This document shows positions 1-43,907 of a stretch of DNA of 46,928 bases, piece by piece; within the stretch, counting starts at the first letter, position 1, and each line of letters begins with the position of its first letter. This DNA comes from Chloroflexota bacterium. Lineage in GTDB: Bacteria > Chloroflexota > Dehalococcoidia > UBA2979. The stretch covers positions 1 through 46,928 of the forward strand of contig PBEG01000004.1 in assembly GCA_002718395.1 (NCBI GenBank). Reading direction: 5' to 3'. Both the position numbers and the translations under genes were made by a program. A model generated the notes under the pieces. That model saw only the letters and a program-made list of their open reading frames with translations, did no database searches and was not told where the DNA came from.

Positions 1-1
1 T

Positions 2-67: not shown

Positions 68-86
68 TTTTAGAAAGGAAATTATC

Positions 87-464: not shown

Positions 465-467
465 TAT

Positions 468-503: not shown

Positions 504-515
504 TAAAGTAATAAT

Positions 516-1109: not shown

Positions 1110-1133
1110 TAAATTATTAATAAGATATAAAAC

Positions 1134-1532: not shown

Positions 1533-1542
1533 TAAGGCGATT

Positions 1543-2801: not shown

Positions 2802-2874
2802 TTCAATCCCTTACTAATAAATAAATTATATTAATTAAACTATATTATCTAGCTTTTTATAAAAAAACAGCTAC

Positions 2875-4312: not shown

Positions 4313-4413
4313 AATATATTTGTATATTAATCTTATAATTTAGTTAGCAATGATATATTTATATTATGTATTTTATATCCTTGATAAAAACATATGCAAA
4401 TTAAGGAAATTTC

Positions 4414-5340: not shown

Positions 5341-5350
5341 GCGAGGAACT

Positions 5351-5944
5351 TTGAAAAAAAATACAAACTATCCAACAATTGGGGTCTTGGGCTTACAAGG
5401 AGATTTTCAAGAGCACATTGAAATATTAACAAAACTACAAATTCCATATATTAAAGTAACAAGTAGTGAAGATTTAGATAAAATTAATGGTTTGATCATT
5501 CCTGGTGGAGAAAGCACAACAATAATTAAACTTTTAAAAACAAATAATATATTTAAAAAGCTGAAAAAGAAAATACAATTAGGTTTACCAACATGGGGGA
5601 CATGTGCAGGTGCAATTGTACTAGCAAAAAAAGTAACTGGCTTAAAATTAGAGACATTAAAAATTTTAGAGATTGATGTTGCCAGAAATGCTTACGGAAG
5701 ACAAAAGGAATCATTTTCTGCAGATGTCAGCATACCCAAATTAAACAAAAACAGATTCCCTGGAATTTTTATTAGAGCTCCAAAAATTAATAAAATTTCA
5801 AGTAAAATAAAACCAATAGCAAAATTAAAAAATGGTGAAATTGTAGGTATAGAAGAAAAAAATATTATAGTAACTACATTTCATCCAGAATTAACACAGG
5901 ATGATAGTTTGCATAAATATTTTTTAAAAAAAATCTCACATTAG
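5351..5944 (+). CDS. pdxT: Pyridoxal 5'-phosphate synthase glutaminase subunit PdxT
   Basis: IGVLGLQGDFQEH, PGGESTT, WGTCAG and FHPELT. TTG start with GAGGAA upstream. Confidence 0.9.
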   Translation: MKKNTNYPTIGVLGLQGDFQEHIEILTKLQIPYIKVTSSEDLDKINGLIIPGGESTTIIKLLKTNNIFKKLKKKIQLGLPTWGTCAGAIVLAKKVTGLKLETLKILEIDVARNAYGRQKESFSADVSIPKLNKNRFPGIFIRAPKINKISSKIKPIAKLKNGEIVGIEEKNIIVTTFHPELTQDDSLHKYFLKKISH

Positions 5945-5951
5945 GAAAAAA

Positions 5952-7322
5952 ATGACATCTGACAAAAACATGGAAAATGAGATTGACAAGTTTATAAAGA
6001 TTTTTCCATTACCAATACAAAAACAAATAAATAAACTAGAAAAGAATGAGCTAATTGAAGTTATTATAGATTTAGGTCGGCCTTTCAAAATCAGACTAAA
6101 AGAAGATGAATTCGAAATTTCTAAAAGAAAAGTAAACGCAAAAGATTTACTTCAGATCACAAAAAAATTATCTGGTTTTGGAGATGATAACCGAGCAGGA
6201 CTAGAAAATACACTACACAGAATATCAGCCATAAGAAACAGGGAACAAAAAATAATTGGAATAACTGCAAGAGTAGGCAGAAGTATTAATGGATCAGCAA
6301 AATTCATTCAAGATTACGCTTCGCTTGGAAAAAGCATTTTGCTGCTTGGGAAACCAGGCATAGGAAAAACAACTATGTTAAGAGAGTTAGCCAGAATTTC
6401 AGCTGAAGATTTAAATAAAAGAGTCATTATAGTAGATACGTCTAATGAAATAGCAGGCGATGGAGATGTGGCTCACTATGGCATTGGTAATGCAAGAAGA
6501 ATGCAAGTTGCATCAACTCATCTACAACACAAAACTATGATTGAAGCAGTAGAAAACCACAATCCGGAAGTGATAGTAATTGATGAAATAAGCACTAAAG
6601 AAGAAACTGAAGCAGCAAGAACTATTGCAGAAAGAGGAGTGCAACTTATTGCTACTGCTCATGGCAATCAATTATCTAATCTTATGCAAAATCCTATTTT
6701 ATGTGATTTAGTTGGCGGCATAGAGCCAGTTACACTAGGAGACGAAGAAGCAAAACGAAGAGGTACGCAAAAAATTGTTCTTGAAAGAAGAAGCCCACCC
6801 ACGTTTGAAACATTAGTGGAAATAAAATCATTTAATAAAGTTGCTGTATACAAAGATACTGCAGCAACTATCGATAAAATTTTACGTGGCAGCAAAATAT
6901 CACCTGAAGTAAGAGAGCTGGACAAAAAAAACAACGTAATGATAAGCAAAAAAACAACTTCAAATGATAAAGTGGAAAACCTGCAAGTAAAAAAAATTCA
7001 TCCTTATGCAATAGATAAAACAAGAGTCCAAGAAGTTATTGATGAGTCTGCCTTGCCTTTCAATGTGACAACAAAAATAGAAGATGCAGACTTAGTAATA
7101 ACTCTACGCCCTCATTTTAGAAGCAAAAAGGGTCCGTTAAAAGAAGCAGAAAACAACAATATTCCTATTCATATTTTACGTAATAATACAAGAACACAAA
7201 TCTTTCAAGTTTTATCAAAAATTGAAATTAGTGATTTAAAGAAAAGACAGAATGATAGTATAAATGCAAAATTAGAAGAAGTATCAGACCTACATGAAGA
7301 GTTAGAAAAACAATATGGTTAA
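5952..7322 (+). CDS. AAA/P-loop ATPase of the Ycf45 / SpoIIIAA-like family, with a long C-terminal extension
   Basis: Walker A GKPGIGKTTMLRELAR; IVDTSNEIAGDGDVAHYGIGNARRMQV; Walker B VIVIDEIST; ATAHG. Confidence 0.7.
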   Translation: MTSDKNMENEIDKFIKIFPLPIQKQINKLEKNELIEVIIDLGRPFKIRLKEDEFEISKRKVNAKDLLQITKKLSGFGDDNRAGLENTLHRISAIRNREQKIIGITARVGRSINGSAKFIQDYASLGKSILLLGKPGIGKTTMLRELARISAEDLNKRVIIVDTSNEIAGDGDVAHYGIGNARRMQVASTHLQHKTMIEAVENHNPEVIVIDEISTKEETEAARTIAERGVQLIATAHGNQLSNLMQNPILCDLVGGIEPVTLGDEEAKRRGTQKIVLERRSPPTFETLVEIKSFNKVAVYKDTAATIDKILRGSKISPEVRELDKKNNVMISKKTTSNDKVENLQVKKIHPYAIDKTRVQEVIDESALPFNVTTKIEDADLVITLRPHFRSKKGPLKEAENNNIPIHILRNNTRTQIFQVLSKIEISDLKKRQNDSINAKLEEVSDLHEELEKQYG

Positions 7323-7938
7323 TAAAGAAAATCTGTTCATAACTTTTGAAGGCGGAGAAGGCGCAGGTAAATCTACACAAGCCAAATTATTAGAAGAGTA
7401 CCTCAAGGGAATAGGCAAACAAACACTTTTAATCAGAGAACCCGGCGCCACAAATATGGGTGAAAAAATAAGAAAAATAATCAGCGAGAATGAAGAAACA
7501 ATTGAACCACTAACAGAATTATTTTTGTTCTCTGCTGCAAGAAAGGAATTAGTTGAAAAAGTTATTCAACCAGCCTTAGCGCAAAATATAACAGTAATAT
7601 GTGATAGGTACATAGATTCTACAATTGCTTACCAACATTTCGGAAGAAATATTGAATTACAAACTGTTTTGTCTGTCATAAAATTAACAACTCTAAATCT
7701 ATTGCCAGATTTAACTATACTGTTAGATATAAACTATAAAGAAATGATTAAGAGAAAAACTAATAATTTAGATTATTTTGAAAGAGAAGAAGAAGAATTC
7801 CATAAAAAAATTCAAAATGGATATAATAAATTAGCAAAACAGGAACCGCAAAGGTGGAAAGTGTTCAGTGCAAATTCAACAGAGATGGAAATTTCTGAAA
7901 AAATTATCGAAACTGTAAATCAAATGGGGATAACGTGA
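7315..7938 (+). CDS. tmk: Thymidylate kinase
   Basis: FITFEGGEGAGKSTQAKLL...REPGAT...DRYIDSTIAYQ. Overlaps the upstream gene by 8 nt. Confidence 0.92.
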   Translation: MVNKENLFITFEGGEGAGKSTQAKLLEEYLKGIGKQTLLIREPGATNMGEKIRKIISENEETIEPLTELFLFSAARKELVEKVIQPALAQNITVICDRYIDSTIAYQHFGRNIELQTVLSVIKLTTLNLLPDLTILLDINYKEMIKRKTNNLDYFEREEEEFHKKIQNGYNKLAKQEPQRWKVFSANSTEMEISEKIIETVNQMGIT

Positions 7939-8801
7939 AGATCAAAATAAAAATTCCGGCAACAAGCGCTAATTTAGGACCAGGCTTTGATACTCTAGGC
8001 ATGGCATTAAGCTGGAAATATGAATACACAATCATGTCAACGCGTAAAGAAAACCAAACTGACATTAAATCAAAAATGGTACAAAAGGGCTTTAATAGTA
8101 TATTCAAAAAATATGGTCAAAAGAAAATTCCGAATATTAAAATTAATACTTCTAAAAACATACTCATAGGTAAAGGGTTAGGTACATCAGCTGCGTGTTA
8201 TTTAGCTGGAATAGAAGCAGCTAATATATTTCTCCAAGACCCATTTAATAAAGAAGAAAAATTAAAGGAAGCGATAGCCATCGAAGGGCACGCTGATAAT
8301 ATTATGCCAGCGTATTATGGAGGATTACAAATAATTGTTAAAAATGAAAATTCTAATGAAATATCAAATTTAAAAATCAAAGTTAATAATAAAATTAAGC
8401 TTCTGGTTCTGGTCCCTTCCTTTTCAATGCCGACAAAAAAAACAAGAAAATCAATTAAGAAAACAGTAGCAATCGAAGATGTTGTGTTTAATATGAGCCG
8501 GTCTATATTATTATCACATGCTCTCGAATCAGGTAAGTATCATTACCTAAATGAGGCAACAAAAGATATGTTACACCAAAAAAATAGAAGTCAATTTTTT
8601 CCTGAGATGTTTCAAGTGTTTGACGCAGGCGTATCAAATGGTGCTCATGGTGTCTATTTATCAGGCGGGGGGCCAACAATAGGTGCCTTTGTAACAAAGA
8701 ACGTGGAAAAAATAGGTCAATCCATGACCAATGCACTAAATGATGCTAATAGTATAATGAAACTATGCACAATCGTGAATTCGGGTATACAGATAGATTA
8801 A
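7935..8801 (+). CDS. thrB: Homoserine kinase
   Basis: PATSANLGPGFD and the GHMP motif GKGLGTSAA. The GTG start overlaps the tmk TGA (GTGA), with GGGGA upstream. Confidence 0.88.
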   Translation: MKIKIKIPATSANLGPGFDTLGMALSWKYEYTIMSTRKENQTDIKSKMVQKGFNSIFKKYGQKKIPNIKINTSKNILIGKGLGTSAACYLAGIEAANIFLQDPFNKEEKLKEAIAIEGHADNIMPAYYGGLQIIVKNENSNEISNLKIKVNNKIKLLVLVPSFSMPTKKTRKSIKKTVAIEDVVFNMSRSILLSHALESGKYHYLNEATKDMLHQKNRSQFFPEMFQVFDAGVSNGAHGVYLSGGGPTIGAFVTKNVEKIGQSMTNALNDANSIMKLCTIVNSGIQID

Positions 8802-8812
8802 TGGCATAAATT

Positions 8813-10033
8813 ATGAAAATAGAAGTAATTAAATTTGGTGGGTCTTCTGTTGCAGATGCAAATAAGATAAAACACGTTGCTAATATCATTAAAGAAAAAG
8901 CAAACAACAATGTAAAAGTAGTTGTAGTTGTCTCAGCAATGGGAGGCTCTACAGATAAACTAATTGCTTTGGCAAATGAAGTAAGTCAAGAACCCAACCC
9001 CCGTGAACTTGATGTTCTTTTATCTACTGGCGAAATTGTTACTTCAACCTTACTATCCATGCAGTTAAATACTATCTCAATACAATCAATAAGCCTTACT
9101 GGTATTCAAGCTGGCATAAGAACTGACGATGCTTATGGGCGTGCTAGAATATCAGAGATCAACACAGGAAGAATAATCAAAGAACTGAAAAATAAGGATG
9201 TGGTTGTTATTGCTGGTTTTCAAGGTTTTTCTGATGAGCAAGACGTAACAACTCTAGGACGAGGAGGAAGTGACACGACGGCCGTAGCACTAGCAGTAGC
9301 CCTAAAAGCTGATACTTGCGAAATATATACTGATGTTTCAGGTGTATATACGGCTGATCCACGATTATGTAACAAGGCGCGCCCATTGACACAAATAGGT
9401 TATGAAGAAATGTTAGAAATGGCAACGACTGGAGCCAAAGTAATTCATTCTAGGGCTGTGGAAGTAGCAGCAATTAATCACATGCCTTTAATAGTAAAAA
9501 ACACTTTCGAACTGTTACAGAAGGGTACTATAATACAGTCAGAGTCAAATATGGAAAATATAAATAAAGTCAGAGGCATAGCACACCAAAATCAGGTTGG
9601 AAAAATAACAATCAAAGGGGTTCCAGATAAACCTGGGATAGCCTCAAGTGTTTTCCAGCCTTTAGCCGAAGCTAATATCCCTGTTGATACAATAGTTCAA
9701 AATTCATCTACAGAAAACCTAACGGACCTCACTTTTACTGTAGCAAATGAAGATTTAAAAAAAGCAATAAAAGTCTCGGAAAAAACCGTCAAAACCATTG
9801 GTGCCGCTGATTTAAATTCCACAAATGAAGTTGGCTCAGTATCTATAATTGGCACCGGAATGACATCTAGTCCCGGTTATGCTGCTAGGATGTTCCAAAC
9901 CTTATTCACTAAAAAAGTCAATATAGAAATTATCTCAACTTCAGAGATTCGGATAACTTGCGTCGTACACAAAGACAGTGTTAAAACAGCCATAAATGCT
10001 CTTCATGATGCTTTTGAATTAGACGTCGAATAA
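8813..10033 (+). CDS. lysC: Aspartate kinase with C-terminal tandem ACT domains
   Basis: VIKFGGSSVAD, VVVVSAMGGSTD, GRGGSDTTA. The ACT region begins at about residue 250. Confidence 0.92.
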   Translation: MKIEVIKFGGSSVADANKIKHVANIIKEKANNNVKVVVVVSAMGGSTDKLIALANEVSQEPNPRELDVLLSTGEIVTSTLLSMQLNTISIQSISLTGIQAGIRTDDAYGRARISEINTGRIIKELKNKDVVVIAGFQGFSDEQDVTTLGRGGSDTTAVALAVALKADTCEIYTDVSGVYTADPRLCNKARPLTQIGYEEMLEMATTGAKVIHSRAVEVAAINHMPLIVKNTFELLQKGTIIQSESNMENINKVRGIAHQNQVGKITIKGVPDKPGIASSVFQPLAEANIPVDTIVQNSSTENLTDLTFTVANEDLKKAIKVSEKTVKTIGAADLNSTNEVGSVSIIGTGMTSSPGYAARMFQTLFTKKVNIEIISTSEIRITCVVHKDSVKTAINALHDAFELDVE

Positions 10034-10135
10034 ATAATAAAACGACTAGAAAATTAACGCTATTTGGTTTAACATTCTATTCCCAAGCAATTGCTATAGC
10101 GTATATACATTTGCACAATTAGTAGTAAGAATTTG

Positions 10136-13100
10136 ATGTTCGTTCATTTACACACTCATACCGAATACTCTTTGCTAGACGGCATGTCAAAAATTAAAGA
10201 CATTGTATCTGCAGCAAAATCACATAAGCAAACAGCCCTAGCAATAACCGATCATGGTGTCATGCACGGAGCTTTAGAATTCTATTTTGAGTGTCAAGCT
10301 CAAGGTATTAAGCCTATTATTGGCCTAGAAGCATATGTTGCCAAAACGAACCTTCGTAACAAAGATAACTCAGAACGCTCACCCTACCATCTAACAATAC
10401 TGGCAAAGAATAATATTGGTTATAAAAACTTACTAAAACTGTCTTCAATATCTCACCTTGAAGGTTTCTATTACCGGCCTAGAATTGATAGAGAGGTTTT
10501 AGAACAACACTGTGAAGGCCTAATAGTTCTTTCCGGTTGTCCCTCTGGTGAATTAATGACATATTTACAAAATGAACAAGAGCAAGATGCAATTGAAACA
10601 ATTAAATGGTATAAAAAAGTTTTTCAGGATAACTACTTTATTGAAATCCAAGAGCACGATCAACAACAATTTTCTAGATTGACACCAAAATTAATTGATC
10701 TGGCAAACACTCATAATATAAAAGTTGTTGCAACTAATGATTCTCATTACACCAACAACGAACAACACAAATTTCATGATCTTCTTTTATGTATTGGAAC
10801 AAATACAACAATCGACGACCCAAAAAGATTTAAACTTGATGGTGATTCCTTTTACTTGAAAACTTCAGAAGAAATGGAAAAATTATTTCAATATATACCA
10901 GAAGCCATAACTAATACGCAACTTATAGCAGATGAAATAGATATTAAATTAGAATTTAATCGAACTTTATTACCTCAGGGAGAGACACAAGAAGGACGTT
11001 CACCAACGGAACAATTAAAGCATCTTTGTCAGGAAGGATTTAAAAAAAGATATAAAGAAAGCAAAGCAACTCAAATAGAGCGATTAGATTATGAGTTAAA
11101 AATAATTGAGGAAACAGGTTTTGTTGAATATATCTTAATTGTCAATGATATTGCGCAATATGCTAAAAGTAAGAAAATCAGAATTGGTGTAAGAGGGTCA
11201 GCTGCTGCTTCAATGATTTTATATTGTCTTGGAGTTACCAACATTGAACCAACTCAATATAATCTTGTTTTTGAAAGATTTTTAAATCCTGAAAGAAAAG
11301 AAATGCCTGATGTTGATTTTGATTTTCCTGACGATAAAAGAGATGAAATAATTCAATATACTGCTGAAAAATATGGACATGATCGTGTTGCTCAAATAAT
11401 CACATTTGGTCGAATGGGAGCGAAAGCATCTATACGTGATGCCGGTCGTGCACTGGGCATGGAATATGACAACGTAGATAAAATTGCTAAACTCGTACCT
11501 GATGTTTTAAATATTTCTATTCAACAAGCATTAGATTCAGCACCTGAAATGAATGATTTGTACAAAAATGATGCCAGCGTGAAGGAATTACTTGACAATG
11601 CACTTGGTATAGAAGGCATAGCACGTCACGCTAGCACACATGCGGCTGGTATAGTTATTTCTGCTGAACCCTTAGAAAAAATAGTTCCTCTTCAACGGCC
11701 AACTTCAACAAAACAGTCCTCTTCTAGTCAAATTGTGCCTACAACACAATTTGCTATGGACGATATAGCAAAAATTGGCCTCTTAAAAATGGATTATCTG
11801 GGCCTAGCTAACCTTGCGGTCTTAGAAAAGGCCTTAAATTTTATTCATGAAACCCAAGGATTAGATTTAGATCTAGACAATTTAGAAGATGGAGATCCGA
11901 AAACTATTGAATTATTTTCTGAAGCTAAAACTTTTGGTATCTTCCAAATGGAGAGCAGTGGAATGAGATCTTATGTTAAAGATTTAAAACCTCAAAACAT
12001 AGTTGAAATTGCTGCAATGGTTGCACTCTATCGACCAGGACCCATGGAGCAAATACCAAATTATATTGATGTTAAACACCAACGATCAACTCCAAAATAT
12101 CTTCATAACGATCTTGCACCAATTTTAGACGAAACTTATGGGGTCATTACTTATCAAGATCAAGTTTTACAAATAGTACGAATATTTGCTGGTTACTCTC
12201 TAGGTCAAGCTGATGTTATGAGAAAAGCAATGGGTAAAAAAATTCCTAAAGTTATGGCTGCTGAAAAAGAAAGATTTATCTCTGGTGCTCTTGATAGGGG
12301 TTATGATGAAAAAATAGCAGAAGAAATTTTTAATTTAATAGAACCGTTTGCCGGTTATGCTTTTAACAAAGCTCACGCCTTTTCTTATGCAACAATTGCT
12401 TATCAAACTGCTTATTTAAAAGCTCATTATCCTGTCGAATTTATGGCTGCTGTTTTATGTACTTCAGGAAACAGCATAGGCAATAATCAAGATAAAATAT
12501 CTCCAACCCTTGCAGAATGTAGAAAACTTGGCATAGACATTCTGCCTCCTGACATTAACAAATCTATAAGTAATTTTTCTATTGAAAAGGACGTCGATGC
12601 TGTTAGTAATATTAGATTTGGTTTAAGCAGGATAAAAAATGTTGGTTCAGCTACTGCTGAACAAATTATTCAAGAAAGAGAATCCAATAAAAATTATATT
12701 TCTTTAGAGGATTTCTCTAGGCGATCTCCAACAAAAGTAATAAATAAACGAGTAATAGAAGCTCTGTCTAAGTGTGGTGCCTTTGATTGTTTAGCGGACC
12801 GCAATGACGTTATAGACAGCACTGAAGAGATAATCAGCCTCAACCACATGGAGAGGAAACTTAAAGATACTGGACAAAAATCTATGTTTGACCTTTTTGG
12901 AGATGAACAAATAATGCCGTTACCAAAACTAGAACTAAAACATAGTAATTATACTAAAGATCAATTTGGTGCATGGGAGAAAGATTTAACTGGATTCTAC
13001 TTTACTGAACACCCTTTCTTAAAAGCTTCTGAAAATATCAGAGATTTTCTTTCTGTTGACATAGCAAATATTAATGAGAGTTTATCAAATTCAAATCAAA

Positions 13101-13744
13101 GAGTTGCTGGTGTATTAAAAAAGGTTGATTTCAGAACAACTAAATATAATAAAAGATTTGCTATATTTGAGCTTGAAGACTTATCAGAAAGCAAAGAGTT
13201 TGTTATGTGGCCAGAAAAATTACAAAATTTTGAACCTCTTTTAGTTCCCGGCAATGTATTATTGATTGATGTTCTGGTTCAAAATAGAAACAGAGGACTA
13301 TCGTTACAAGCTAATGCAGTTTATGCCTATGATCGTGATTCTCAAAAAATTATTGGCTTAGATGAAAAAGATTTAAAAAAAATTCAACCAGTAAAAATTG
13401 ACAATAACACTAATAGACAATTAAAAAATAATAAGATTCAGAGTTTAAATAATTTGGACAACAAATCCCTAAAAAATGAAGGATTAAACATTTATATTGA
13501 CGAAACCAATGATATTCAATCAGATAAAAGGCGTCTTTCTAGAATTTTTAATTTAATTGAGAATGTATCTGGTAACACTCCTGTATACTTACACATAAAC
13601 AGTATTCATGGTCAAAAACAATCTTTATTTCTTCGTAACGTTTCTGTCAATGAACACTTAATTCGCGATATCAAAATTCTTTTAGGTGTTTTAGGTGAAA
13701 TTATTTATGAAAAAGATAGTGCTTCATCAGTATCCGCCGTTTAA
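10136..13744 (+). CDS. dnaE: DNA polymerase III alpha subunit
   Basis: PHP domain MFVHLHTHTEYSLLDG; polymerase core (GVRGSAAAS, PDVDFDF, FNKAHAFSYA); OB fold and C-terminal tail. ATG at 10136 is preferred over the track's TTG at 10133. Confidence 0.95.
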   Translation: MFVHLHTHTEYSLLDGMSKIKDIVSAAKSHKQTALAITDHGVMHGALEFYFECQAQGIKPIIGLEAYVAKTNLRNKDNSERSPYHLTILAKNNIGYKNLLKLSSISHLEGFYYRPRIDREVLEQHCEGLIVLSGCPSGELMTYLQNEQEQDAIETIKWYKKVFQDNYFIEIQEHDQQQFSRLTPKLIDLANTHNIKVVATNDSHYTNNEQHKFHDLLLCIGTNTTIDDPKRFKLDGDSFYLKTSEEMEKLFQYIPEAITNTQLIADEIDIKLEFNRTLLPQGETQEGRSPTEQLKHLCQEGFKKRYKESKATQIERLDYELKIIEETGFVEYILIVNDIAQYAKSKKIRIGVRGSAAASMILYCLGVTNIEPTQYNLVFERFLNPERKEMPDVDFDFPDDKRDEIIQYTAEKYGHDRVAQIITFGRMGAKASIRDAGRALGMEYDNVDKIAKLVPDVLNISIQQALDSAPEMNDLYKNDASVKELLDNALGIEGIARHASTHAAGIVISAEPLEKIVPLQRPTSTKQSSSSQIVPTTQFAMDDIAKIGLLKMDYLGLANLAVLEKALNFIHETQGLDLDLDNLEDGDPKTIELFSEAKTFGIFQMESSGMRSYVKDLKPQNIVEIAAMVALYRPGPMEQIPNYIDVKHQRSTPKYLHNDLAPILDETYGVITYQDQVLQIVRIFAGYSLGQADVMRKAMGKKIPKVMAAEKERFISGALDRGYDEKIAEEIFNLIEPFAGYAFNKAHAFSYATIAYQTAYLKAHYPVEFMAAVLCTSGNSIGNNQDKISPTLAECRKLGIDILPPDINKSISNFSIEKDVDAVSNIRFGLSRIKNVGSATAEQIIQERESNKNYISLEDFSRRSPTKVINKRVIEALSKCGAFDCLADRNDVIDSTEEIISLNHMERKLKDTGQKSMFDLFGDEQIMPLPKLELKHSNYTKDQFGAWEKDLTGFYFTEHPFLKASENIRDFLSVDIANINESLSNSNQRVAGVLKKVDFRTTKYNKRFAIFELEDLSESKEFVMWPEKLQNFEPLLVPGNVLLIDVLVQNRNRGLSLQANAVYAYDRDSQKIIGLDEKDLKKIQPVKIDNNTNRQLKNNKIQSLNNLDNKSLKNEGLNIYIDETNDIQSDKRRLSRIFNLIENVSGNTPVYLHINSIHGQKQSLFLRNVSVNEHLIRDIKILLGVLGEIIYEKDSASSVSAV

Positions 13745-13781
13745 ACTAATAAAATTATAAAAGTTTTTAGAGTAAGTATAG

Positions 13782-14816
13782 ATGAAAAAATTTATTCTAT
13801 TTTTTTTATTGTTTTTATTAACTATTTTATTGCTGTTTGAAATTTTTGATGGGACCTTATCTGATAATTTTGCTAAACCATCTAAAAATATTATTACTCA
13901 AACATCTATTAGTTCTGATGTTTCCCCTAAATCTTCCTCTGTAAATAAAAAAAATCAAAGTAGCCAATCTTCTTTAGATACAAAAGAAATCCCTACAAAA
14001 GCAATCAATATTAATAATAATGTTTATGTATCTATATTTCCTGAAATATTAAATAATGGAGAATTTTTTAAGATAACCCTTAGTTCTAATGTGAACCCTT
14101 TATCTTCTATAAAGTTTCTTCAAAAAACTTATCCAATTTTCAAAGGTGCCAATGGTGTTTTTTCAAGCATCATTCCTGTTCCTCTCGACACCAAAGAAGG
14201 ATTATATAAAATAACCGTTGATTACTTAGAAAAACAAAACATAATTTATGAAAACATTAATGAGATTAAAATATTAAATAAGGACAGAGGTTTTGACTAT
14301 ATTACTTTGTCACAAGAAATAACTAAATCTGCTTTTTCTGAAGAATCAATACACGAAGATGCAGAGATTCGCGCGGAAACTTCGGCGTTGTTTAGTGTTG
14401 GTAATTATTGGAATGGCGCATTTTTAATGCCTTGTGATGGTGAAATATCCACAATTTTTGGTGTTGGGCGTTCTTACAACAACCAGCCTGTTTCTTCATA
14501 TCATCTTGGTTTAGACATAGCTGCAGATATGCACACTAAAATTAATGCTCCTGCTAAAGGTATAATTAAATTGGTCGTTGAATCTCCTTTAAGAGGATTA
14601 ATGGTTTACATTGACCATGGTCTTGGTGTCCAGTCTAGTTTGGCTCATCTAGATTCTGCTTTTATTAAGGCTGGTGATGTTGTTACAAAAGAAACATTGA
14701 TCGGCACAGTAGGTTCTTCCGGTGCTTCTACTGGCCCACATCTTCATTGGGAAGTTTCTGTTTGGGATACTTTAACCGATCCTTTTGTTTGGACAACTAC
14801 ATCTTTATTTGATTAA
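13782..14816 (+). CDS. Secreted/membrane-anchored M23 family metallopeptidase
   Basis: N-terminal hydrophobic anchor. C-terminal HLGLDIAA...YIDHG...GSSGASTGPHLHWEV (M23 HxxxD and HxH motifs). Confidence 0.85.
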   Translation: MKKFILFFLLFLLTILLLFEIFDGTLSDNFAKPSKNIITQTSISSDVSPKSSSVNKKNQSSQSSLDTKEIPTKAININNNVYVSIFPEILNNGEFFKITLSSNVNPLSSIKFLQKTYPIFKGANGVFSSIIPVPLDTKEGLYKITVDYLEKQNIIYENINEIKILNKDRGFDYITLSQEITKSAFSEESIHEDAEIRAETSALFSVGNYWNGAFLMPCDGEISTIFGVGRSYNNQPVSSYHLGLDIAADMHTKINAPAKGIIKLVVESPLRGLMVYIDHGLGVQSSLAHLDSAFIKAGDVVTKETLIGTVGSSGASTGPHLHWEVSVWDTLTDPFVWTTTSLFD

Positions 14817-26197: not shown

Positions 26198-26305
26198 TTT
26201 ACTTACATAAAAAAATATACACAAAATTGTGACATTATCATAGACTATTTTTATGTATATCTTCAATTTGTATTATAAACATCTAAAAATGCAATGGAGC
26301 TTGTT

Positions 26306-26908
26306 ATGAAAAAATTGTTTTTAAAGTTGCTTAATTCAGAATTCGGACAATTTATATTTAATGGAGCAATAATTAGATTACCTGAGGAGATGCATATTGC
26401 TGAACATTCTAAAATACTTAGTGTTGGTCAACACCAAAAGAAACTACTAAAAATTCTTGGTAACAGACTTCACTTAAAAACAGATCAACACACTGTTGCC
26501 ATTGAAGACAATGAATATCTAATCAACACAACCAAAAAAACATATAAGAATTTATCAGAGTTAATTGATTTGATCAAAAAAAATAAATTTGATTTAGTAT
26601 TGTGTGGTCATTACACAAACTTATTAAACAATGAAGAACTCAGAGTGTTTATATCAACCATTTATCAATCAATAAACACTGAAGGCATAGTGATTATTTG
26701 GAATTTTGAACAAACAAATAAAAATTTCTTTAGGTGGTTTTTAAATTTTCCTTTCTCTTTAAACAACTTTACGAAAAATCCTAATAAGAGAATTCTAGAA
26801 GCTGCTAAAGAGACGAATGTTGAATTTATGACAGAAGTGAGTGTGCGTCCTTTTTTATTTCCTTTTATAAAAAGAGAAAGTGTAATCTTGGGCAAGCCAC
26901 CAAAATAA
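26306..26908 (+). CDS. Hypothetical protein with a class I methyltransferase-like layout but a degenerate SAM-binding loop
   Basis: ILSVGQHQK (motif I position), VAIEDNE, FDLVLCGHY, GIVIIWNF. ATG 26306 has GGAG 6 nt upstream. The track start at 26294 lies inside that SD. Confidence 0.45.
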   Translation: MKKLFLKLLNSEFGQFIFNGAIIRLPEEMHIAEHSKILSVGQHQKKLLKILGNRLHLKTDQHTVAIEDNEYLINTTKKTYKNLSELIDLIKKNKFDLVLCGHYTNLLNNEELRVFISTIYQSINTEGIVIIWNFEQTNKNFFRWFLNFPFSLNNFTKNPNKRILEAAKETNVEFMTEVSVRPFLFPFIKRESVILGKPPK

Positions 26909-26912
26909 AAAA

Positions 26913-27509
26913 TTATTCTTCTTTCAAAAAAATATCCAACACATTTTTAGTTATATGTTTTTTTTTATCGGAGCCACAATTTCTTATTTCTGAAGAAGAA
27001 ATATCCAAAATATTTTTTTCAACAAAAATCAATCCACTTAAATTAACCTTTGCCTTGTTTAATTGAAGAACTAAGTCTTTAACAACTGGCCCTGAAGCTC
27101 CCACCCTTGGGAAAACAACAACATTAACCAAATCAAATAACTGTTTGTAATTTTTCCACGACTGAATACTTAAAAAACTATCCATGCCCATAATTACAAA
27201 AAAATTTGCATTTTTATTTTCGTTTTCAATCAAACTGTTGACAGTGTTAAACGTATAAGAGGTTTTTTCGTTCTGCTCCCAATTAACTACTTTTGTTTTT
27301 TGAATCTCAGAAAAAGCCTGAGTTGCCATTTGTAATCTTTTTTTATAACTATTTACCCCCAAACGCTTCTCACCAACAACCCCGCCAGTTGGACAAATAT
27401 AAAGCTTGTCCAACTCAAGCACATCAACAGAAAAAGAGGCAATTTCTTCATGACCTTTATGTGGGGGGTCAAACGCCCCGCCAAAAAAACCTATATTTAA
27501 AACTCCCAA
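26913..27509 (-). CDS. nadD: Nicotinate-nucleotide adenylyltransferase
   Basis: GFFGGAFDPPHKGHEEIA and a C-terminal ISSSEIR motif. TTG start with GGAGGAAAGGAAG upstream. Overlaps the obg 3' end by 13 nt. Confidence 0.88.
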   Translation of the reverse strand: MGVLNIGFFGGAFDPPHKGHEEIASFSVDVLELDKLYICPTGGVVGEKRLGVNSYKKRLQMATQAFSEIQKTKVVNWEQNEKTSYTFNTVNSLIENENKNANFFVIMGMDSFLSIQSWKNYKQLFDLVNVVVFPRVGASGPVVKDLVLQLNKAKVNLSGLIFVEKNILDISSSEIRNCGSDKKKHITKNVLDIFLKEE

Positions 27510-28642
27510 CTAACTTCCTTTCCTCCAACCAAAACAATGTCTCCGTTTTTGGCGCCAGATTTCATCAGATCCCTATTTACCCCCAAAAGCTTCATTCTTC
27601 GAAAAAATTCATATCTAGCCTCACCATTCGACAAATCTAGAGTTTCAGCAAGAAGATTAGGTGTGCTGCCATCTAAAAGAAACTTGTTGCTTTTTTTTAA
27701 AACAACAAACTTGTTTTTCTTGGGTTGTGGTTTTTTTGTCTCTAGGCCTAATTTCTCTTCTGTTTTGCCGGTATCTAGGGTAGAAAAATGATTTTGGAGT
27801 CTTTTTTTTATCTCATTGACCACAACCGTGTTGTTTGTTTGTCCATAAACAATTGTCAAATGGTCTTTTTGCCCGCCAACAACTATTTTAATTATTTCTT
27901 GTTTGTTGTCGCACATGTCAACATATTTTGAAAGAAGAGACTCGGTCTCAACAACACACAACACAACACTCGCCGATCTAATATATTCACTTGTTTGTTT
28001 GGTTTCTGACGCTGGGATGTCGGCCACCACAAGAAGCGTCTTTCCTTCTTCGTATGTACCATAATTTACCGCCTGTGTTGTACCAGGATAAGCGCCAGTT
28101 TTCGCCTTCGACCCACTAAGCGCATTTAGTAGGGTTGTTTTTCCAGAGTTGGGCTCGCCTATTATGATTGCGTCTGCGGTGCTTTTGGGCACAACTTCAA
28201 TTGTGACTGTCTCGCCTTTTTGCCCATTTTGAGAAAAGCGCGGTGTTTTTCTGTTTGGCAACACGAACTTCGTGTTGCCCCAACCACCCTTACCACCTCT
28301 GGCTAACAGGTGTGTGTGTTTGTTTGTGTATTTAATTTCCTTTTTCTCGTTGTTGTTTGTTATCCACAAAGAGTAGTTTTTTGGAACAAGAACCGTGGAG
28401 TGTTCCCCTGCTTTTCCGTTTTTGTTGTTTGTGTCTCCCTTTTGCCCGTTTTGCGCTCTAATAAGAGACCCTGTAGCTTTGTCGAAGTCTGTGGGTTTAT
28501 TTAAAAATTTAGCATATATATTGCCGCCATTGCCGCCATTGCCGCCATCTGGTCCTCCTTTTGGTACCTTGTAAGATCTTTTGAAGGAAACTATTCCATC
28601 TCCGCCTTTGCCTGCGTGCAAGATAATTGTTCTTTTTTTCAT
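27497..28642 (-). CDS. obg: Obg/CgtA-family GTPase homologue with a degenerate G domain
   Basis: Obg fold (GKGGDGIVSFKRSYKVPKGGPDGGNGGNGGN...ARGGKGGWGN), P-loop GEPNSGKTT, G2 PGTT, and a C-terminal OCT domain (EARYEFFRRMKLLGVNRDLMKSGAKNGDIV). G3 reads DIPA, and G4 reads GQKD instead of NKxD. Confidence 0.85.
   Translation of the reverse strand: MKKRTIILHAGKGGDGIVSFKRSYKVPKGGPDGGNGGNGGNIYAKFLNKPTDFDKATGSLIRAQNGQKGDTNNKNGKAGEHSTVLVPKNYSLWITNNNEKKEIKYTNKHTHLLARGGKGGWGNTKFVLPNRKTPRFSQNGQKGETVTIEVVPKSTADAIIIGEPNSGKTTLLNALSGSKAKTGAYPGTTQAVNYGTYEEGKTLLVVADIPASETKQTSEYIRSASVVLCVVETESLLSKYVDMCDNKQEIIKIVVGGQKDHLTIVYGQTNNTVVVNEIKKRLQNHFSTLDTGKTEEKLGLETKKPQPKKNKFVVLKKSNKFLLDGSTPNLLAETLDLSNGEARYEFFRRMKLLGVNRDLMKSGAKNGDIVLVGGKEVSWEF
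28360..28368 (+). promoter_or_regulatory. Perfect DnaA box TTATCCACA inside the obg coding sequence
   Basis: Exact 9-mer read at 28360-28368. On the minus strand it encodes part of LWITN. Confidence 0.6.
28521..28547 (-). repeat. Perfect in-frame 9-bp tandem triplication (ttgccgcca x3) encoding GGN-GGN-GGN of the Obg glycine-rich fold
   Basis: Read directly: 28521-28529, 28530-28538 and 28539-28547 are identical. Confidence 0.9.
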
Positions 28643-28689
28643 CTCTTCTTCTTTATTATATGTTTCTTTTTTATATTATATATCTTTTT
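28643..28689. other. AT-rich tract (7 G/C in 47 bp): candidate DNA unwinding element. It also carries two TATAAT hexamers on the obg strand
   Basis: ctcttcttctttattatatgtttcttttttatattatatatctttttt. The minus strand reads TATAAT at 28680-28675 and 28660-28655. Confidence 0.45.
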
Positions 28690-28704
28690 TAGTAGTAGTA
28701 GTAG
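28690..28704 (+). repeat. (TAG)5 array, DnaA-trio-like (3'-GAT-5' x5), followed by GGG at 28705-28707
   Basis: tagtagtagtagtag ggg, read directly from the sequence. Confidence 0.6.
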
Positions 28705-28707
28705 GGG

Positions 28708-28725
28708 TGTTGATTTTGTTGATAA
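28708..28725 (-). promoter_or_regulatory. Tandem DnaA-box-like 9-mers TGTTGATTT and TGTTGATAA (minus strand: TTATCAACA AAATCAACA)
   Basis: 28717-28725 differs from TGTGGATAA at one position. 28708-28716 differs at three positions. Both abut the G cluster and the TAG array. Confidence 0.5.
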
Positions 28726-28797
28726 GTTGGTTTTTTTAGTTATAAAACGTTGTTTTTTGTGTTGGTGGGTTGTGGGTTTATTGAAAAATGTGTTTGT

Positions 28798-28809
28798 TTG
28801 TTGTTGTTG
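28798..28809 (+). repeat. (TTG)4 microsatellite
   Basis: Read directly from the sequence. Confidence 0.9.
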
Positions 28810-28837
28810 TTTTGATCGCTTGTTGTTTTTAGTTGCT

Positions 28838-28855
28838 GTTGTTGTTGTTGTTGTT
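28838..28855 (+). repeat. (GTT)6 microsatellite, which is (AAC)6 on the transcribed strand
   Basis: Read directly from the sequence. Confidence 0.9.
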
Positions 28856-28878
28856 TTGATGGTTTGTTGTTTTTATGT

Positions 28879-30273
28879 TTATGCTATTTTTCTTTTTCGA
28901 TCGATAAGTTCTTTTAGGTTGGAAACATCTCTTTTGATTTCTTCATCGATAATTTGACCCTTGTCCATTTTTCTCCAACCATGGTGCACGGTTGAGTGGT
29001 CTCTGTTCCCTAGAGAACGGCCGATTTCAACTAGTGAAATGTTTGCAACCTCTCTCAGTAAGTACATGGCCATTTGTCTTGGGTAGGCATATTGTTTTTC
29101 TCTGTTGTTAGAAAGGAGGTCGGTGTTTTGCAGTTTGTAATAGTCACAGACAACTTCAACAATTAAATCAACGGAGGGAGGAGAATAGAGGCTTTCCGAT
29201 GTTTGTAGGTGCCTAAGGGTGTCTTCTACTAAAGCAACATTAATGTCTTCTCCTGTAAGGCGGGATGCAGCCAGTAATCGTGTTAGAGAGCCTTCAAGCT
29301 CCCTGACATTATTTGTGCAAATGTCCGCTATTTTATATAAAACAGCACTTTCAATTTTTACTTGATGTATTTTAATTTTTTCTTTTAAAATTGCCATTCT
29401 AGTTTCAATGTTTGGAACCTGTAAATCTGCTATCATTCCCCACTCAAATCGCGACTGCAACCTTTCTTCTAGTTGTTTAATTTTATTAGGGCTTTTGTCA
29501 GAAGAAATTACAATTTGTTTTCCTGCCTCATAAAGTTCATTAAAGGTATGAAAAAACTCTTCTTGGGTTTGTTCTTTCCCGGCGATGAATTGAATGTCAT
29601 CAATTAGAAGCACGTCAGTTTTCCTGTAAATATTTCTAAAGTTTCTTTGGTTTCTTTTTTGAATAGAAGCAATAAGTCGATTTGTAAATTGTTCTGCGGA
29701 AAGATATACAACATTAAGACCTTGTTCAATACATGAATGACCAATTGCATGTAATAAATGAGTCTTTCCAAGACCTGCTCCTCCATATAAAAACAACGGA
29801 TTAAACTCTTTTCCGGGACTGTTAGAGGCAGATTGCGATGCTGCAAAAGCTAATCTATTAGACGGGCCAACAATAAAATTATTAAAAATGTAATTTTTGC
29901 GTAGGCTTGGTTGATTAGCTGACCAACCTTGTTGTTGTTTTTCTTCTTTTAGATTGTGCTCTGTTGTTTTTTCATATTGTGGTTGAAGAGCAAACACTTT
30001 TTCATTTTTATCTTCTTTTTGAATTGAAACAGTTTTGAATTCAATATCTAATGGTTCATCAGCTCTTTTTGCAACAAGCTTCAGTATAAGCGGCTTAAGC
30101 CTTCTTTCTAGCCACTCATTAACAAATTCAGATCGAGTACCAATAATTAAAGTAGAACCCTGAAACGAAATACCTATTGTGTCTTTTAACCAAGTGTCAT
30201 AGTTAGGTTTTGAAATGTTTTCTGATAAGTCTTCTAAAACTTCTTGCCAGAGATTTGAAGCGTCTAATTTCAC
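28879..30273 (-). CDS. dnaA: Chromosomal replication initiator protein DnaA
   Basis: N-terminal LWQEVLEDL...YDTWLKD, AAA+ GGAGLGKTHLLHAIG, LLIDDIQF, and a C-terminal DNA-binding domain (YPRQMAMYLLRE...GNRDHSTVHH). Confidence 0.97.
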   Translation of the reverse strand: MKLDASNLWQEVLEDLSENISKPNYDTWLKDTIGISFQGSTLIIGTRSEFVNEWLERRLKPLILKLVAKRADEPLDIEFKTVSIQKEDKNEKVFALQPQYEKTTEHNLKEEKQQQGWSANQPSLRKNYIFNNFIVGPSNRLAFAASQSASNSPGKEFNPLFLYGGAGLGKTHLLHAIGHSCIEQGLNVVYLSAEQFTNRLIASIQKRNQRNFRNIYRKTDVLLIDDIQFIAGKEQTQEEFFHTFNELYEAGKQIVISSDKSPNKIKQLEERLQSRFEWGMIADLQVPNIETRMAILKEKIKIHQVKIESAVLYKIADICTNNVRELEGSLTRLLAASRLTGEDINVALVEDTLRHLQTSESLYSPPSVDLIVEVVCDYYKLQNTDLLSNNREKQYAYPRQMAMYLLREVANISLVEIGRSLGNRDHSTVHHGWRKMDKGQIIDEEIKRDVSNLKELIDRKRKIA

Positions 30274-30319
30274 TTTGTCCTCGAGGAAACCTGAATAATA
30301 CTAAATTATAGGCGAGCAG

Positions 30320-30328
30320 TTATCCACA
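30320..30328 (+). promoter_or_regulatory. Perfect DnaA box TTATCCACA
   Basis: Exact consensus 9-mer, 47 nt upstream of the dnaA ATG. Confidence 0.85.
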
Positions 30329-30342
30329 TTTTAGTAACAAAT

Positions 30343-30351
30343 TGTGGATAA
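30343..30351 (-). promoter_or_regulatory. Perfect DnaA box (TGTGGATAA on the + strand), inverted relative to the box at 30320
   Basis: Exact consensus 9-mer, with a 14-bp spacer between the two boxes. Confidence 0.85.
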
Positions 30352-30584
30352 GTATAAATAATATATATACTATTAATTTTTATATTTAGAGAGCGGTCAA
30401 CAAAAAAAAGTTGAAAGATCTCCCCACCGCTTCGTACTTTAACATCTCACATTAAAAAAAAACAAGAACTTTATGTAAGTTAATTTTTATTTTTTTTTAA
30501 AAAAGAAAAAAATAAAGAAACTAACCTATTTTTTTGTAATGTAGTAACCTCATTAATGCAAAAAATAGAAAGAAGTAAAATAAA

Positions 30585-31373
30585 ATGAATAAAATATTTT
30601 GTGTTGATATCGGAAATTCAACAATAGCAATTGGTATTTTTGAAAACAATGAGCTTCTTACTTCATTCAGATTTGCTACTAATAAAGAGTTTTTAGCAAC
30701 CGAATACCAATTAATGATTAATTCTGTTTTACAAAATAAAGAAATTCTAAAATCAGATTTTGACGGAGCAATAATTTCATCAACTGTACCATCTTTATTG
30801 AATAATTTTGAGTTGGCAATTAATGATGTTTTTGGTTTTTCTCCAATGGTTGTTGGTCCTGGAATAAAAACAGGATTAAACATTAAATATGAAAATCCAA
30901 AAGAAATAGGGCCAGACAGAATTCTTCATGCAATTGCTGGTTTAAATATTGCCTCGGCTCCACTAATAATTGTTGATCTTGGTACGGGATTGGTTTTTGA
31001 TGTTATAGACTCAGAAGAAAATTATCTAGGAGGAGCTATTGCTCCAGGAGTTTCTGTTGCTGCGGAGGCTTTGTTCAATAAAGGTTCTATGTTGAATTCA
31101 ATTAATATACAAAAACCAGAATCAGTTATTGGCAAAAATACAAGATCTGCTCTAGAGTCTGGAATTTATTTTGGAAGTCTGGAATTAATTAAAGGAATTA
31201 CAGAAAAAATGAAAGGTGATTTAAAAGGAAAAGCAACTGTTATTGGAACAGGGGGGGATATTAGTATTTTTAAAGATGATTTGAATTTTTTTGATTATGT
31301 TGAGCCCGATCTTAACCTTTATGGCCTTCATTTGTTATACTTAGCCAACGCAAAGGACAAAAATGACAAATAA
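30585..31373 (+). CDS. coaX: Type III pantothenate kinase
   Basis: FCVDIGNSTIAIGIF, GPDRILHA, IVDLGTG, GTGG. Confidence 0.9.
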   Translation: MNKIFCVDIGNSTIAIGIFENNELLTSFRFATNKEFLATEYQLMINSVLQNKEILKSDFDGAIISSTVPSLLNNFELAINDVFGFSPMVVGPGIKTGLNIKYENPKEIGPDRILHAIAGLNIASAPLIIVDLGTGLVFDVIDSEENYLGGAIAPGVSVAAEALFNKGSMLNSINIQKPESVIGKNTRSALESGIYFGSLELIKGITEKMKGDLKGKATVIGTGGDISIFKDDLNFFDYVEPDLNLYGLHLLYLANAKDKNDK

Positions 31374-38661: not shown

Positions 38662-39558
38662 ATGAAAAATAAAGCTAGATTAATTACAGCAATGGTTACA
38701 CCCATGACAGCTTCTGGAGAAGTAGATCTAGGTGCATGTGCAGAATTGGCAAGGATACTAGTAAACAATGGTTCAGATGGTATTGTTGTAACAGGAACCA
38801 CCGGTGAATCACCAACACTATCAAACGAAGAAAAAGCATCAATATGGGGCTCAGTAAAAGCTGCAGTAGGGGATGATATATTTGTCATTGCCGGCGCAAC
38901 AAACTATTCGACACAAGAATCAATAGCTGGAGCTGATGCAGCATTAAACTCTGGTGCAGACGCTTTATTATTAACAGTGCCTTACTATAACAAACCTAAC
39001 CAGGAAGGCTTGTTTGAACATTTTAAGACTATTGCTGAAGCAACTCCTCTACCTTGTGTTTTATATAATGTTCCATCTAGGACAAGTTTAAATATGAGCG
39101 CAGAAACAACAATTAAATTATCGCAGTTAGATAATATTATTGGAATTAAAGAAGCATCATCAGATATGGATCAAATTGCGAAAATCATTAATTCGACTGA
39201 CGCAGATTTTTTAGTTTGGTCAGGCAACGATGCTGATATTATTTCAGTTATGGCTATGGGGGGAGATGGTGTTGTCTCGGTTGCGTCTCATATAGTTGGC
39301 AATGAATTAAAATCGATAATTAATTTTATTGTTAAAGGGGATATAAATTCTGCTAATAATTTAAATAGCCAATTGTTAGATCTTTACGATGTTTTATTTC
39401 TTGAAAGTAATCCAATGCCTATTAAATGGGCGTTAAACCATCTTGGCTTTGATGCAGGAAAACCAAGGTTGCCTCTAATTGAGCCCAATCAAAATACCAG
39501 GAAAAAACTTGTGAATGAAATAAATAAATTATCGAATAATTATTATTCTGAAAATTAG
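38662..39558 (+). CDS. dapA: 4-hydroxy-tetrahydrodipicolinate synthase
   Basis: ITAMVTPM, VVTGTTGESPTLS, YYNKP, YNVPSRT, GIKEAS. Confidence 0.93.
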   Translation: MKNKARLITAMVTPMTASGEVDLGACAELARILVNNGSDGIVVTGTTGESPTLSNEEKASIWGSVKAAVGDDIFVIAGATNYSTQESIAGADAALNSGADALLLTVPYYNKPNQEGLFEHFKTIAEATPLPCVLYNVPSRTSLNMSAETTIKLSQLDNIIGIKEASSDMDQIAKIINSTDADFLVWSGNDADIISVMAMGGDGVVSVASHIVGNELKSIINFIVKGDINSANNLNSQLLDLYDVLFLESNPMPIKWALNHLGFDAGKPRLPLIEPNQNTRKKLVNEINKLSNNYYSEN

Positions 39559-40049
39559 TTATTATTATCTTTCCATTCAGACCAACGCAGCTCTAATCTA
39601 GATCTACCCTTCTTATAGCCAAGTTGATCACCAATAATTCCACCAAAAATATTGGCGAATAATCTTCCGGTTATTAATAGGTATGCGAATAAAATTATTG
39701 TTCCTAATATTTCATTTGCAAACAAAAAAGTAGTATTGAAAATTATCAAAAAACCTGTAAACAAGCTTAAAAAAATGCCCAAAAAAGCAAATGAAATTAC
39801 GTAAGTTCTTTCTATTTTCCTAACCTCTCTTAAAATAGCAAAAATTTCGTCCGGTACACTTTTAACTGTGTTATTTTTAGTAATATTTTTTTTACAAATT
39901 TCACACTTTTTATTTTTGTTACTTGCTAACTCTACTGGATTAAAACAGAATTTACAAAAATTACCCGCATTGGGCCTTAATCCATTACCAACTTCAACCA
40001 TGTGTAGTTCAAGTTTCTCACTAAATAATGGACATTTTTCTACTGACAT
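39555..40049 (-). CDS. Hypothetical membrane protein: N-terminal zinc-ribbon-like module (CKFC...CEIC) plus hydrophobic helices
   Basis: NFCKFCFNP...KCEICKK, then VISFAFLGIFLSLFTGFLIIF and GTIILFAYLLITGRLFANIFGGIIG. The ATG immediately follows the purA TAA with a 0-nt spacer. Confidence 0.55.
   Translation of the reverse strand: MSVEKCPLFSEKLELHMVEVGNGLRPNAGNFCKFCFNPVELASNKNKKCEICKKNITKNNTVKSVPDEIFAILREVRKIERTYVISFAFLGIFLSLFTGFLIIFNTTFLFANEILGTIILFAYLLITGRLFANIFGGIIGDQLGYKKGRSRLELRWSEWKDNNN

Positions 40050-41439: not shown

Positions 41440-43907
<2,468 letters not shown>

Follow-up and report, generated by a model that had tools for sequence, protein, structure and literature searches.

The basal unwinding system (BUS) of the Bacillus subtilis replication origin, reportedly described by Richardson (2016, 2019) and Pelliciari (2021, 2023), is the known system closest to the DNA element considered here. 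This element lies at positions 28643-28725 of a contig from a Chloroflexota bacterium of the class Dehalococcoidia (PBEG01000004.1, assembly GCA_002718395.1), within a 46,928-nucleotide stretch referred to below as the window, and occupies part of the spacer between dnaA and obg. An annotation made from the DNA letters alone, called here the sequence-only reading, had proposed it as a candidate origin-unwinding module. Comparative analysis leads us to regard 28643-28725 as very probably the DnaA-dependent unwinding module, a canonical BUS, of the chromosome's replication origin. The module is probably one half of a bipartite oriC, the other half containing two perfect DnaA boxes upstream of dnaA.

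A BUS is defined by at least three DnaA-trios of the form 3'-NAN-5' within 16 bp of a DnaA box. The trios are placed on the strand that reads 5'-TGTGGATAA-3' and on the 5' side of the box, and 3'-GAT-5' is both the preferred and the commonest trio (PMC8287927). Tandem boxes are the most frequent arrangement, and 57% of predicted BUS have a second box that is co-oriented with the first and abuts it. The better match is the upstream box, the downstream one is more degenerate, and the box-to-trio gap peaks at 10-13 bp (PMC8287927). Cryo-electron microscopy has revealed that two co-oriented boxes position DnaA so that each trio's 3'-GA-5' dinucleotide is captured by the oligomer. The central adenine is read by Asn187 of DnaA, and the protein also needs Ile190, Lys222/Glu223 and Arg264 (PMC10721633). 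In B. subtilis incC, the DnaA boxes #6 and #7 are abutting and co-oriented, with the better box upstream, and are followed by a G:C cluster, trios at a 12-bp gap and AT-rich DNA; the box strand reads TTATCCACA AATCCACA GGCC CTA CTA TTA CTT CTA CTA. These elements are read in the direction of dnaA transcription in the spacer downstream of dnaA, and more boxes lie upstream of dnaA, giving a bipartite origin (PMC6669920).

Related modules are found in other bacteria. In Clostridium a BUS lies downstream of dnaA, C. botulinum (PMC8287927, supplement) being grouped here with C. sulfidigenes. The C. sulfidigenes locus (L062) carries TTATCAACA AATCAACA GCCC (CTA)6, nearly the sequence of the window, on the same strand and in the same position relative to dnaA. 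Its box 2 is 8 nt long and its cluster 4 nt, compared with 9 nt and 3 nt in the window; the phylum is Bacillota rather than Chloroflexota, the DnaA proteins are about 42% identical, and the downstream genes differ. The Helicobacter pylori origin (oriC1-dnaA-oriC2) is also split by dnaA and has a box, GGG and GAT trios in its downstream half; its box consensus is different, and binding at oriC2 depends on supercoiling. The H. pylori module is listed as GGTAAGTGC GGG GATGATGAC... (PMC8287927, supplement). For Dehalococcoides mccartyi, the oriC predicted by DoriC/Ori-Finder is just downstream of dnaA, and BUS matches fall at about 1.6-1.9 kb (PMC8287927, supplement). The BUS predicted there is weak, with a single box at 1-2 mismatches, 3-7 loose A-rich trios and low scores, whereas the window module is clean and canonical. 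The Chloroflexi entries considered from the published BUS table, five D. mccartyi strains among them, are all weak and low-scoring (PMC8287927, supplement).

Re-reading of the window confirmed, base for base, the element coordinates and strings of the sequence-only reading, including its one-mismatch box and its count of G and C in the AT-rich tract. On the minus strand, where dnaA is encoded, the module runs from 28725 to 28643 in the order TTATCAACA, AAATCAACA, CCC, (CTA)5, AT tract. Box 1 (28717-28725; TGTTGATAA on the plus strand) differs from the consensus TTATCCACA at one position and is the better, upstream box. Box 2 (28708-28716; TGTTGATTT on the plus strand) is weak, co-oriented with box 1 and abuts it with a 0-bp gap. 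A 3-bp G:C cluster at 28705-28707, CCC on the box strand and GGG on the trio strand, separates box 2 from the first trio; CCGG, CGGG or GGG occupy the analogous place in published BUS (PMC8287927, supplement). The trios themselves (28690-28704) read 5'-TAG-3' five times on the plus strand, that is, five perfect copies of the preferred 3'-GAT-5' on the correct strand and with the correct polarity. A gap of 3 bp separates the first of them from box 2 and one of 12 bp from box 1, the latter being exactly the B. subtilis gap and inside the 10-13 bp peak. Distal to the trios lies a 47-bp tract (28643-28689) with 7 G/C (15% G+C, in a window of about 33% G+C), which ends at the obg ATG and contains the fourth least stable 30-mer of the whole window (99.93 percentile of nearest-neighbour duplex instability).

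The protein partner is conserved as well. The window dnaA (28879-30273, minus strand, with its stop at 28879; Pfam DnaA_N, Bac_DnaA and Bac_DnaA_C) lies between the two box regions, and its product matches the B. subtilis DnaA of the cryo-EM structure 8BTG with E=1e-113. All five of the B. subtilis residues N187, I190, K222, E223 and R264, which serve the capture of trios and single strands and oligomerisation, are identical in the window protein (N198, I201, K233, E234 and R275). As an internal positive control, a pattern scan of 80 dnaA loci recovered the same module on the dnaA sense strand in six Firmicute loci, about 100-190 bp past dnaA. The geometry at 28643-28725 is identical to that of validated BUS elements, and the proposal of a B. 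subtilis-type module is supported by the 12-bp gap, by the DnaA residues and by the conservation described below. The two systems differ in the downstream gene (dnaN in B. subtilis, obg here), in the boxes (TCCACA-type in B. subtilis, TCAACA-type here) and in the trios (six mixed as opposed to five identical). B. subtilis has a large cluster of boxes upstream of dnaA where the window has two, and the AT tract of the window, unlike that of B. subtilis, abuts the start codon of the next gene; the B. subtilis module is a validated one, the window module a predicted one. The sequence-only reading had called the trio array unusually regular, a view that does not hold, since (GAT)5 occurs 82 times and a TTATCAACA-type box 174 times in the published table (PMC8287927, supplement). 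The array is ordinary; what is new is the lineage, the dnaA-obg rather than dnaA-dnaN context across a clade of 33-71% G+C, and the persistence of the module beside obg after inversion of dnaA.

Conservation was assessed in low-GC relatives (DnaA 70-93% identical, about 33-36% G+C), consisting of marine metagenome contigs, TARA samples included, and one metagenome-assembled genome (MAG) from NCBI, GCA_029246995.1. In an alignment of the window with nine of these contigs (10 sequences), 29 of 36 module columns are invariant, compared with 13 of 171 in the upstream part of the spacer and 17 of 49 in the AT tract. A metagenome scan with the pattern ATCAACA-N5-AACACCCCTACTACTA, which any array of at least three copies would pass, yielded six additional low-GC marine contigs, each with exactly five copies. 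The CTA copy number is therefore five in all 15 contigs from low-GC relatives (nine aligned and six from the scan). Long contigs of the low-GC clade include ERZ23796852 NODE_10 (120 kb) and JAQWMB010000007.1 (174 kb). The sequence-only reading had named an array that was absent or length-polymorphic in close relatives as evidence to the contrary, and had proposed beforehand a test of whether the phasing is conserved while the flanks drift; the latter pattern is what is seen, at three evolutionary depths. In relatives with DnaA 70-76% identical, the upstream spacer is 36-43% identical to the window and the module 89-92%. The box 1 core ATCAACA is invariant in 10 of 10 aligned sequences and the CCC/GGG cluster in all low-GC relatives. 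Box 2 retains an invariant 3' half, AACA, behind a variable 5' half (AAAYYAACA; conserved form NNNNNAACA). This pattern points to function rather than to a neutral microsatellite, as judged from the alignment.

Upstream of the boxes, the remaining 153 nt of the spacer (28726-28878) are A/C-rich and G-poor on the dnaA strand (87% A+C, 3% G) and contain CAACA 11 times; their (CAA)n runs are specific to the window. In low-GC relatives the equivalent sequence is unconserved and its composition is kept, with 3-8% G in all of them against a background of 16.5%. High-GC relatives have several co-oriented CCACA cores in this part of the spacer. The G depletion may stem from weak, co-oriented half-sites for DnaA or from an mRNA linker that is unstructured; in the former case the segment may be an array of weak co-oriented box cores that feeds the DnaA oligomer.

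The closest genomes in a species-representative collection are Dehalococcoidia MAGs with DnaA 51-56% identical and 66-71% GC. They share with the low-GC group the gene order coaBC<-coaX<- / ->dnaA->obg->nadD and retain the succession box, box, N3, CTA... 60-130 bp upstream of obg. Two closed relatives, OZ244720.1 (dnaA near 1.44 Mb) and OZ242017.1 (dnaA near 0.20 Mb), show the dnaA-BUS-obg arrangement too. In the 66-71% GC relatives the first CTA always stands 3 nt past the second box, N3 being CCA, GCT or GTC, and box 2 takes the form NNNTCCACA or NNNCCAACR. The modules read TTTTCAACG CCGTCCACG CCA (CTA)5 in L002, ACTCCACA CCGTCCACA CCA CTA CTG CTA CTG in L001, CCGTCCACA CGATCCACA CCA CTA ... 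in L006, TTGCCCACA GCGCCCACA GCT CTA CCA CTA in L005 and TTACCCACA CCGCCAACG GCT CTA CCA CTA CGA CTA in L004. In L003 (Dehalococcoidia MAG CBDFIB010000004.1, 2400-7400) the module is ATCTCCACG GGGCCCACA GTC (CTA)3, about 85 bp upstream of obg. The coaBC-coaX-dnaA block of this genome is inverted relative to all other relatives, with a breakpoint between the dnaA stop and the box-trio module, so that the module now lies between coaBC and obg.

Linkage of module and obg is found in all seven lineage groups examined. The sequence-only reading had remarked that the gene downstream is obg and not dnaN; Pfam confirms the gene, and the neighbour is no anomaly of one genome, as it is the conserved arrangement of an entire clade of Dehalococcoidia. 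Its concern that the unwinding element overlaps the obg promoter and start is correct in that the AT tract is also the obg 5' leader, with a purine-rich AAGAAGAAGAG directly before the ATG. This overlap is no objection, as the B. subtilis layout inside the dnaA-dnaN operon is alike (PMC6669920) and the scanned region 28300-30700, spacer included, contained no terminator-like site. A literature search for a dnaA-obg origin context returned nothing. It is conceivable, although unlikely, that the unwinding module is functionally coupled to obg and not to dnaA, the melting zone doubling as the obg leader or promoter. Such coupling would explain the adjacency of BUS and obg across Dehalococcoidia of 33-71% GC, even where dnaA has been inverted away, as in L003.

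A further box cluster was encountered outside this gene context. A metagenome contig of 66% GC (L093, Ga0209986_10013941) carries seven DnaA boxes (at most one mismatch), mostly of the TTATCAACA type, in 250 bp at 1080-1380, followed by TTATCAACA CCGCCAACA CCC (CTA)3, and resembles a complete oriC. This 5.8-kb contig is without dnaA or obg. It encodes three tandem paralogous open reading frames (ORFs; about 230 aa, with a MAL/MAI...GP..G start), and neither Pfam nor PHROGs matched the ORFs flanking its module. The contig could hold a chromosome origin unlinked to dnaA, or be part of a mobile element served by the DnaA of its host.

The obg gene (27497-28642, minus strand; GTP1_OBG, MMR_HSR1 and DUF1967; ATG at 28642-28640) encodes a GTPase and is followed by nadD, and a divergent coaX-coaBC pair lies upstream of dnaA (Pfam). 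The window also contains gyrB, dnaE, rho, tmk and hrcA-grpE-dnaK-dnaJ; the proximity of gyrB and dnaE to the module counts as further support for an origin. No copy of dnaN and no tRNA was found in the window, and Rfam gave no match at the gathering threshold over the window, nor at E<=1 over 28600-30650. Inside obg, at 28520-28548, a perfect 9-bp repeat (ATTGCCGCC) occurs 3.2 times, the coding strand giving a GGNGGNGGNGG stretch in the N-terminal domain of Obg, which is glycine-rich. No Pfam family matches five ORFs of 132-254 aa. Those at 26294-26908 (+) and 39555-40049 (-) have syntenic, Pfam-less counterparts of the same or nearly the same length in relative loci, and those at 1134-1532 (+) and 2037-2801 (-) are likewise called in overlapping contigs, which come from the same population or one nearly identical to it; the fifth is at 41440-41964 (+).

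Strand composition was examined as well. The plus-strand GC skew at third codon positions (GC3 skew) of 45 genes was regressed on coding strand and on the side of a movable breakpoint. The best breakpoint is at 27.6 kb (residual ratio 0.58), followed by 28.8 kb (0.62) and 26.0-26.9 kb (0.63-0.64); at 30.3 kb the ratio is 0.70. Its polarity fits an origin, since the G-rich strand leads away from the site, and 0 of 2000 permutations did equally well. Genes on the plus strand have a GC3 skew of -0.073 to the left and +0.129 to the right (p=0.003), and those on the minus strand +0.099 and -0.077 (p=0.03). The local test, over 47 kb only, puts a switch of origin polarity at 26-29 kb and so agrees with an origin at this locus. 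The same measure in 6-13-kb loci of the 66-71% GC relatives was uninformative, because C3 exceeds G3 on nearly every coding strand and swamps any replication effect. An overlapping contig (L098, 99.9% identical in the overlap) extends 7 kb to the left of the window and carries tuf-secE-nusG-rplKAJL on the plus strand; dnaE is on the plus strand of the window, within 1-14816. Both would therefore be head-on to a fork leaving the proposed origin. In the 7 kb of tuf and ribosomal genes, G3 and C3 counts are too small to decide and, if anything, slightly contrary.

Perfect DnaA boxes also mark this region. The window has three perfect TTATCCACA boxes, each of them within 2 kb of the module, and base composition would predict about 0.6 window-wide. 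Relaxed-match box density fails to mark the region in this AT-rich genome; perfect boxes alone do so. The box at 28360-28368, within the obg coding region, was discounted as probably fortuitous, because the equivalent site is without a box in the 11 relative contigs checked. The other two, which the sequence-only reading had overlooked, form an inverted pair, TTATCCACA-N14-TGTGGATAA, at 30320-30351, about 50 bp upstream of the dnaA start, and are invariant in nine aligned sequences. Box pairs also occur upstream of dnaA in L002, L004 and L005, and near-consensus boxes flank dnaA on both sides in high-GC relatives. The coaX-dnaA spacer that contains the inverted pair has a mean column identity of 78%, compared with 69% for the dnaA-obg spacer. 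Within it, relatives with DnaA 70-76% identical share long invariant blocks over 30380-30560, on the dnaA strand for example TTACTACATTACAAAAAAATAGGTTAG, AAAAAAATAAAAATTAACTTACATAA and CGGTGGGGAG ... TCTCT, which may serve the origin region as promoters or as sites for protein binding. This spacer had no Rfam match, and in RNAalifold an RNA structure received no support from covariation (covariation term +1.13).

Three other explanations of these data have to be weighed. Besides (TAG)5, the window has no perfect (CTA/TAG)n array with n>=4, and five copies were reached in 0 of 500 block shuffles. The array might nevertheless be a neutral trinucleotide microsatellite, and the DnaA-box-like 9-mers beside it chance matches, in a spacer that is AT-rich and prone to repeats. 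Of the window's perfect trinucleotide arrays with at least four copies, which number five, three (TAG x5, TTG x4 and TGT x6) cluster in the dnaA-obg spacer, the (TTG)n and (TGT)n arrays being 100-180 bp from (TAG)5, so slippage is active there. DnaA boxes with up to two mismatches are also frequent in a 33% GC genome, at 10.9 per kb. For a spacer so prone to repeats, the case against a microsatellite rests on conservation and not on the shuffles. An ad hoc BUS score combining box mismatches, trio run length and CTA count ranked the module first in the window, but one shuffle out of 200, the best, tied it, a result of the long NTN runs to which T-rich DNA gives rise. The score was therefore dropped as a statistic, and array length and conservation were used in its place. 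Copy number is fixed at five in the low-GC relatives, while the neighbouring (TTG)n arrays are not conserved among them and 158 of the 171 flanking columns vary, and the same module is present in relatives with twice the G+C. On these alignments the microsatellite explanation is already refuted, and we give it practically no weight.

The module could instead be mainly a DnaA-controlled operator or promoter of obg, replication starting elsewhere. It ends 47 bp from the obg ATG, a TATAAT-like hexamer is conserved in the AT tract (28675-28680, minus strand) and would serve as the -10 element, obg linkage is constant, and in L003 the box-box-CTA module is directly upstream of obg although dnaA is no longer the upstream gene. 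A consensus promoter scan, however, scored no sigma-70-type promoter in the dnaA-obg spacer or AT tract, and the -35 candidate 17 bp upstream of the hexamer is unacceptable (TACTAC matches TTGACA at one of six positions). As the scans gave neither a terminator-like site nor a scored promoter before obg, dnaA and obg probably share a transcript, as dnaA and dnaN do in B. subtilis; with the conserved TATAAT, a promoter that has a -10 element only is conceivable. For control of transcription by DnaA, double-stranded boxes would suffice, and five invariant 3'-GAT-5' trios at the exact BUS spacing and polarity would be left unexplained. The same module precedes unrelated genes, namely the gene after dnaA in Firmicutes and ORFs without a family match in L093, and the GC3-skew switch maps to the region. 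An operator role, which could coexist with origin function, therefore seems rather improbable as the principal explanation. A third possibility is that the origin is at this locus and the duplex opens upstream of dnaA, at about 30353-30383, the downstream module being an auxiliary site for DnaA binding or titration. The upstream spacer has the pair of conserved perfect boxes, the window's least stable 30-mer (at 30353, adjoining them) and long invariant AT-rich blocks. Skew is unable to separate the two dnaA-flanking spacers, and an origin between coaX and dnaA would render every flanking gene co-directional with its fork. Yet neither upstream box has a trio run within 16 bp of it on the correct strand and side, and the two are inverted, where the BUS model requires co-oriented boxes (PMC10721633). 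The upstream boxes are placed where dnaA autoregulation sites usually sit, and in validated bipartite origins such as that of B. subtilis, opening occurs in the trio-bearing half downstream of dnaA (PMC6669920). We consider opening upstream of dnaA very unlikely.

Several observations weigh against assigning the unwinding function to 28643-28725. The DNA of lowest stability lies upstream of dnaA, away from the module, and so do the only perfect boxes that are conserved. The skew covers 47 kb only and does not distinguish the spacer on one side of dnaA (28.7 kb) from that on the other (30.3 kb); the best change-point of TA skew is at about 10 kb and disagrees with that of GC3. Forks leaving 28.76 kb would be co-oriented with just 53% of coding bases, so this genome has essentially no gene-strand bias. 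Some 30 kb to the left, the cluster of tuf and ribosomal-protein genes would run head-on, without a negative GC3 skew. The loose published BUS rule is permissive, being satisfied at 242 sites in the window, and the trio arrays of high-GC relatives are degenerate, L006 having one canonical trio only. Finally, the conserved TATAAT and the module that travelled with obg in L003 permit a regulatory role for obg.

A bipartite origin with its unwinding half downstream of dnaA remains the reading that we prefer. The boxes at 30320-30351 are probably the second half of the bipartite oriC, a site of dnaA autoregulation, or both; they are two boxes rather than an upstream cluster, in a place that would suit autoregulation alone equally well. 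The coaX-dnaA spacer is read as the non-unwinding half because it has no correctly placed trio run and its boxes are inverted, not tandem. In the proposed mechanism, DnaA domain IV would bind the co-oriented boxes TTATCAACA and AAATCAACA, and a DnaA-ATP oligomer would extend from this platform across GGG onto the plus strand. There it would capture the 3'-GA-5' of each of the five 3'-GAT-5' trios and stretch the plus strand. Opening would then spread into the AT tract at 28643-28689, where the helicase may be loaded. The upstream inverted boxes would recruit DnaA or loop the DNA, autoregulate dnaA, or both, and obg would be read through from dnaA, as dnaN is in B. subtilis.

This assignment would narrow the probable replication start of an uncultured, low-GC marine clade of Dehalococcoidia to a few dozen bases, which may be of use in orienting and closing metagenome-assembled genomes, in coverage-based estimates of growth rate and in replicon design. 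It would also provide a clean BUS for the Chloroflexota, whose entries considered from the published survey are all weak. The box-box-N3-trio geometry has outlasted a doubling of genomic G+C, and the BUS model gains good natural evidence from this. The linkage of BUS and obg, also conserved, is a small, testable oddity. If coupling to obg were true, it would tie origin firing or DnaA occupancy mechanistically to the expression of Obg, a growth-rate and stringent-response factor.

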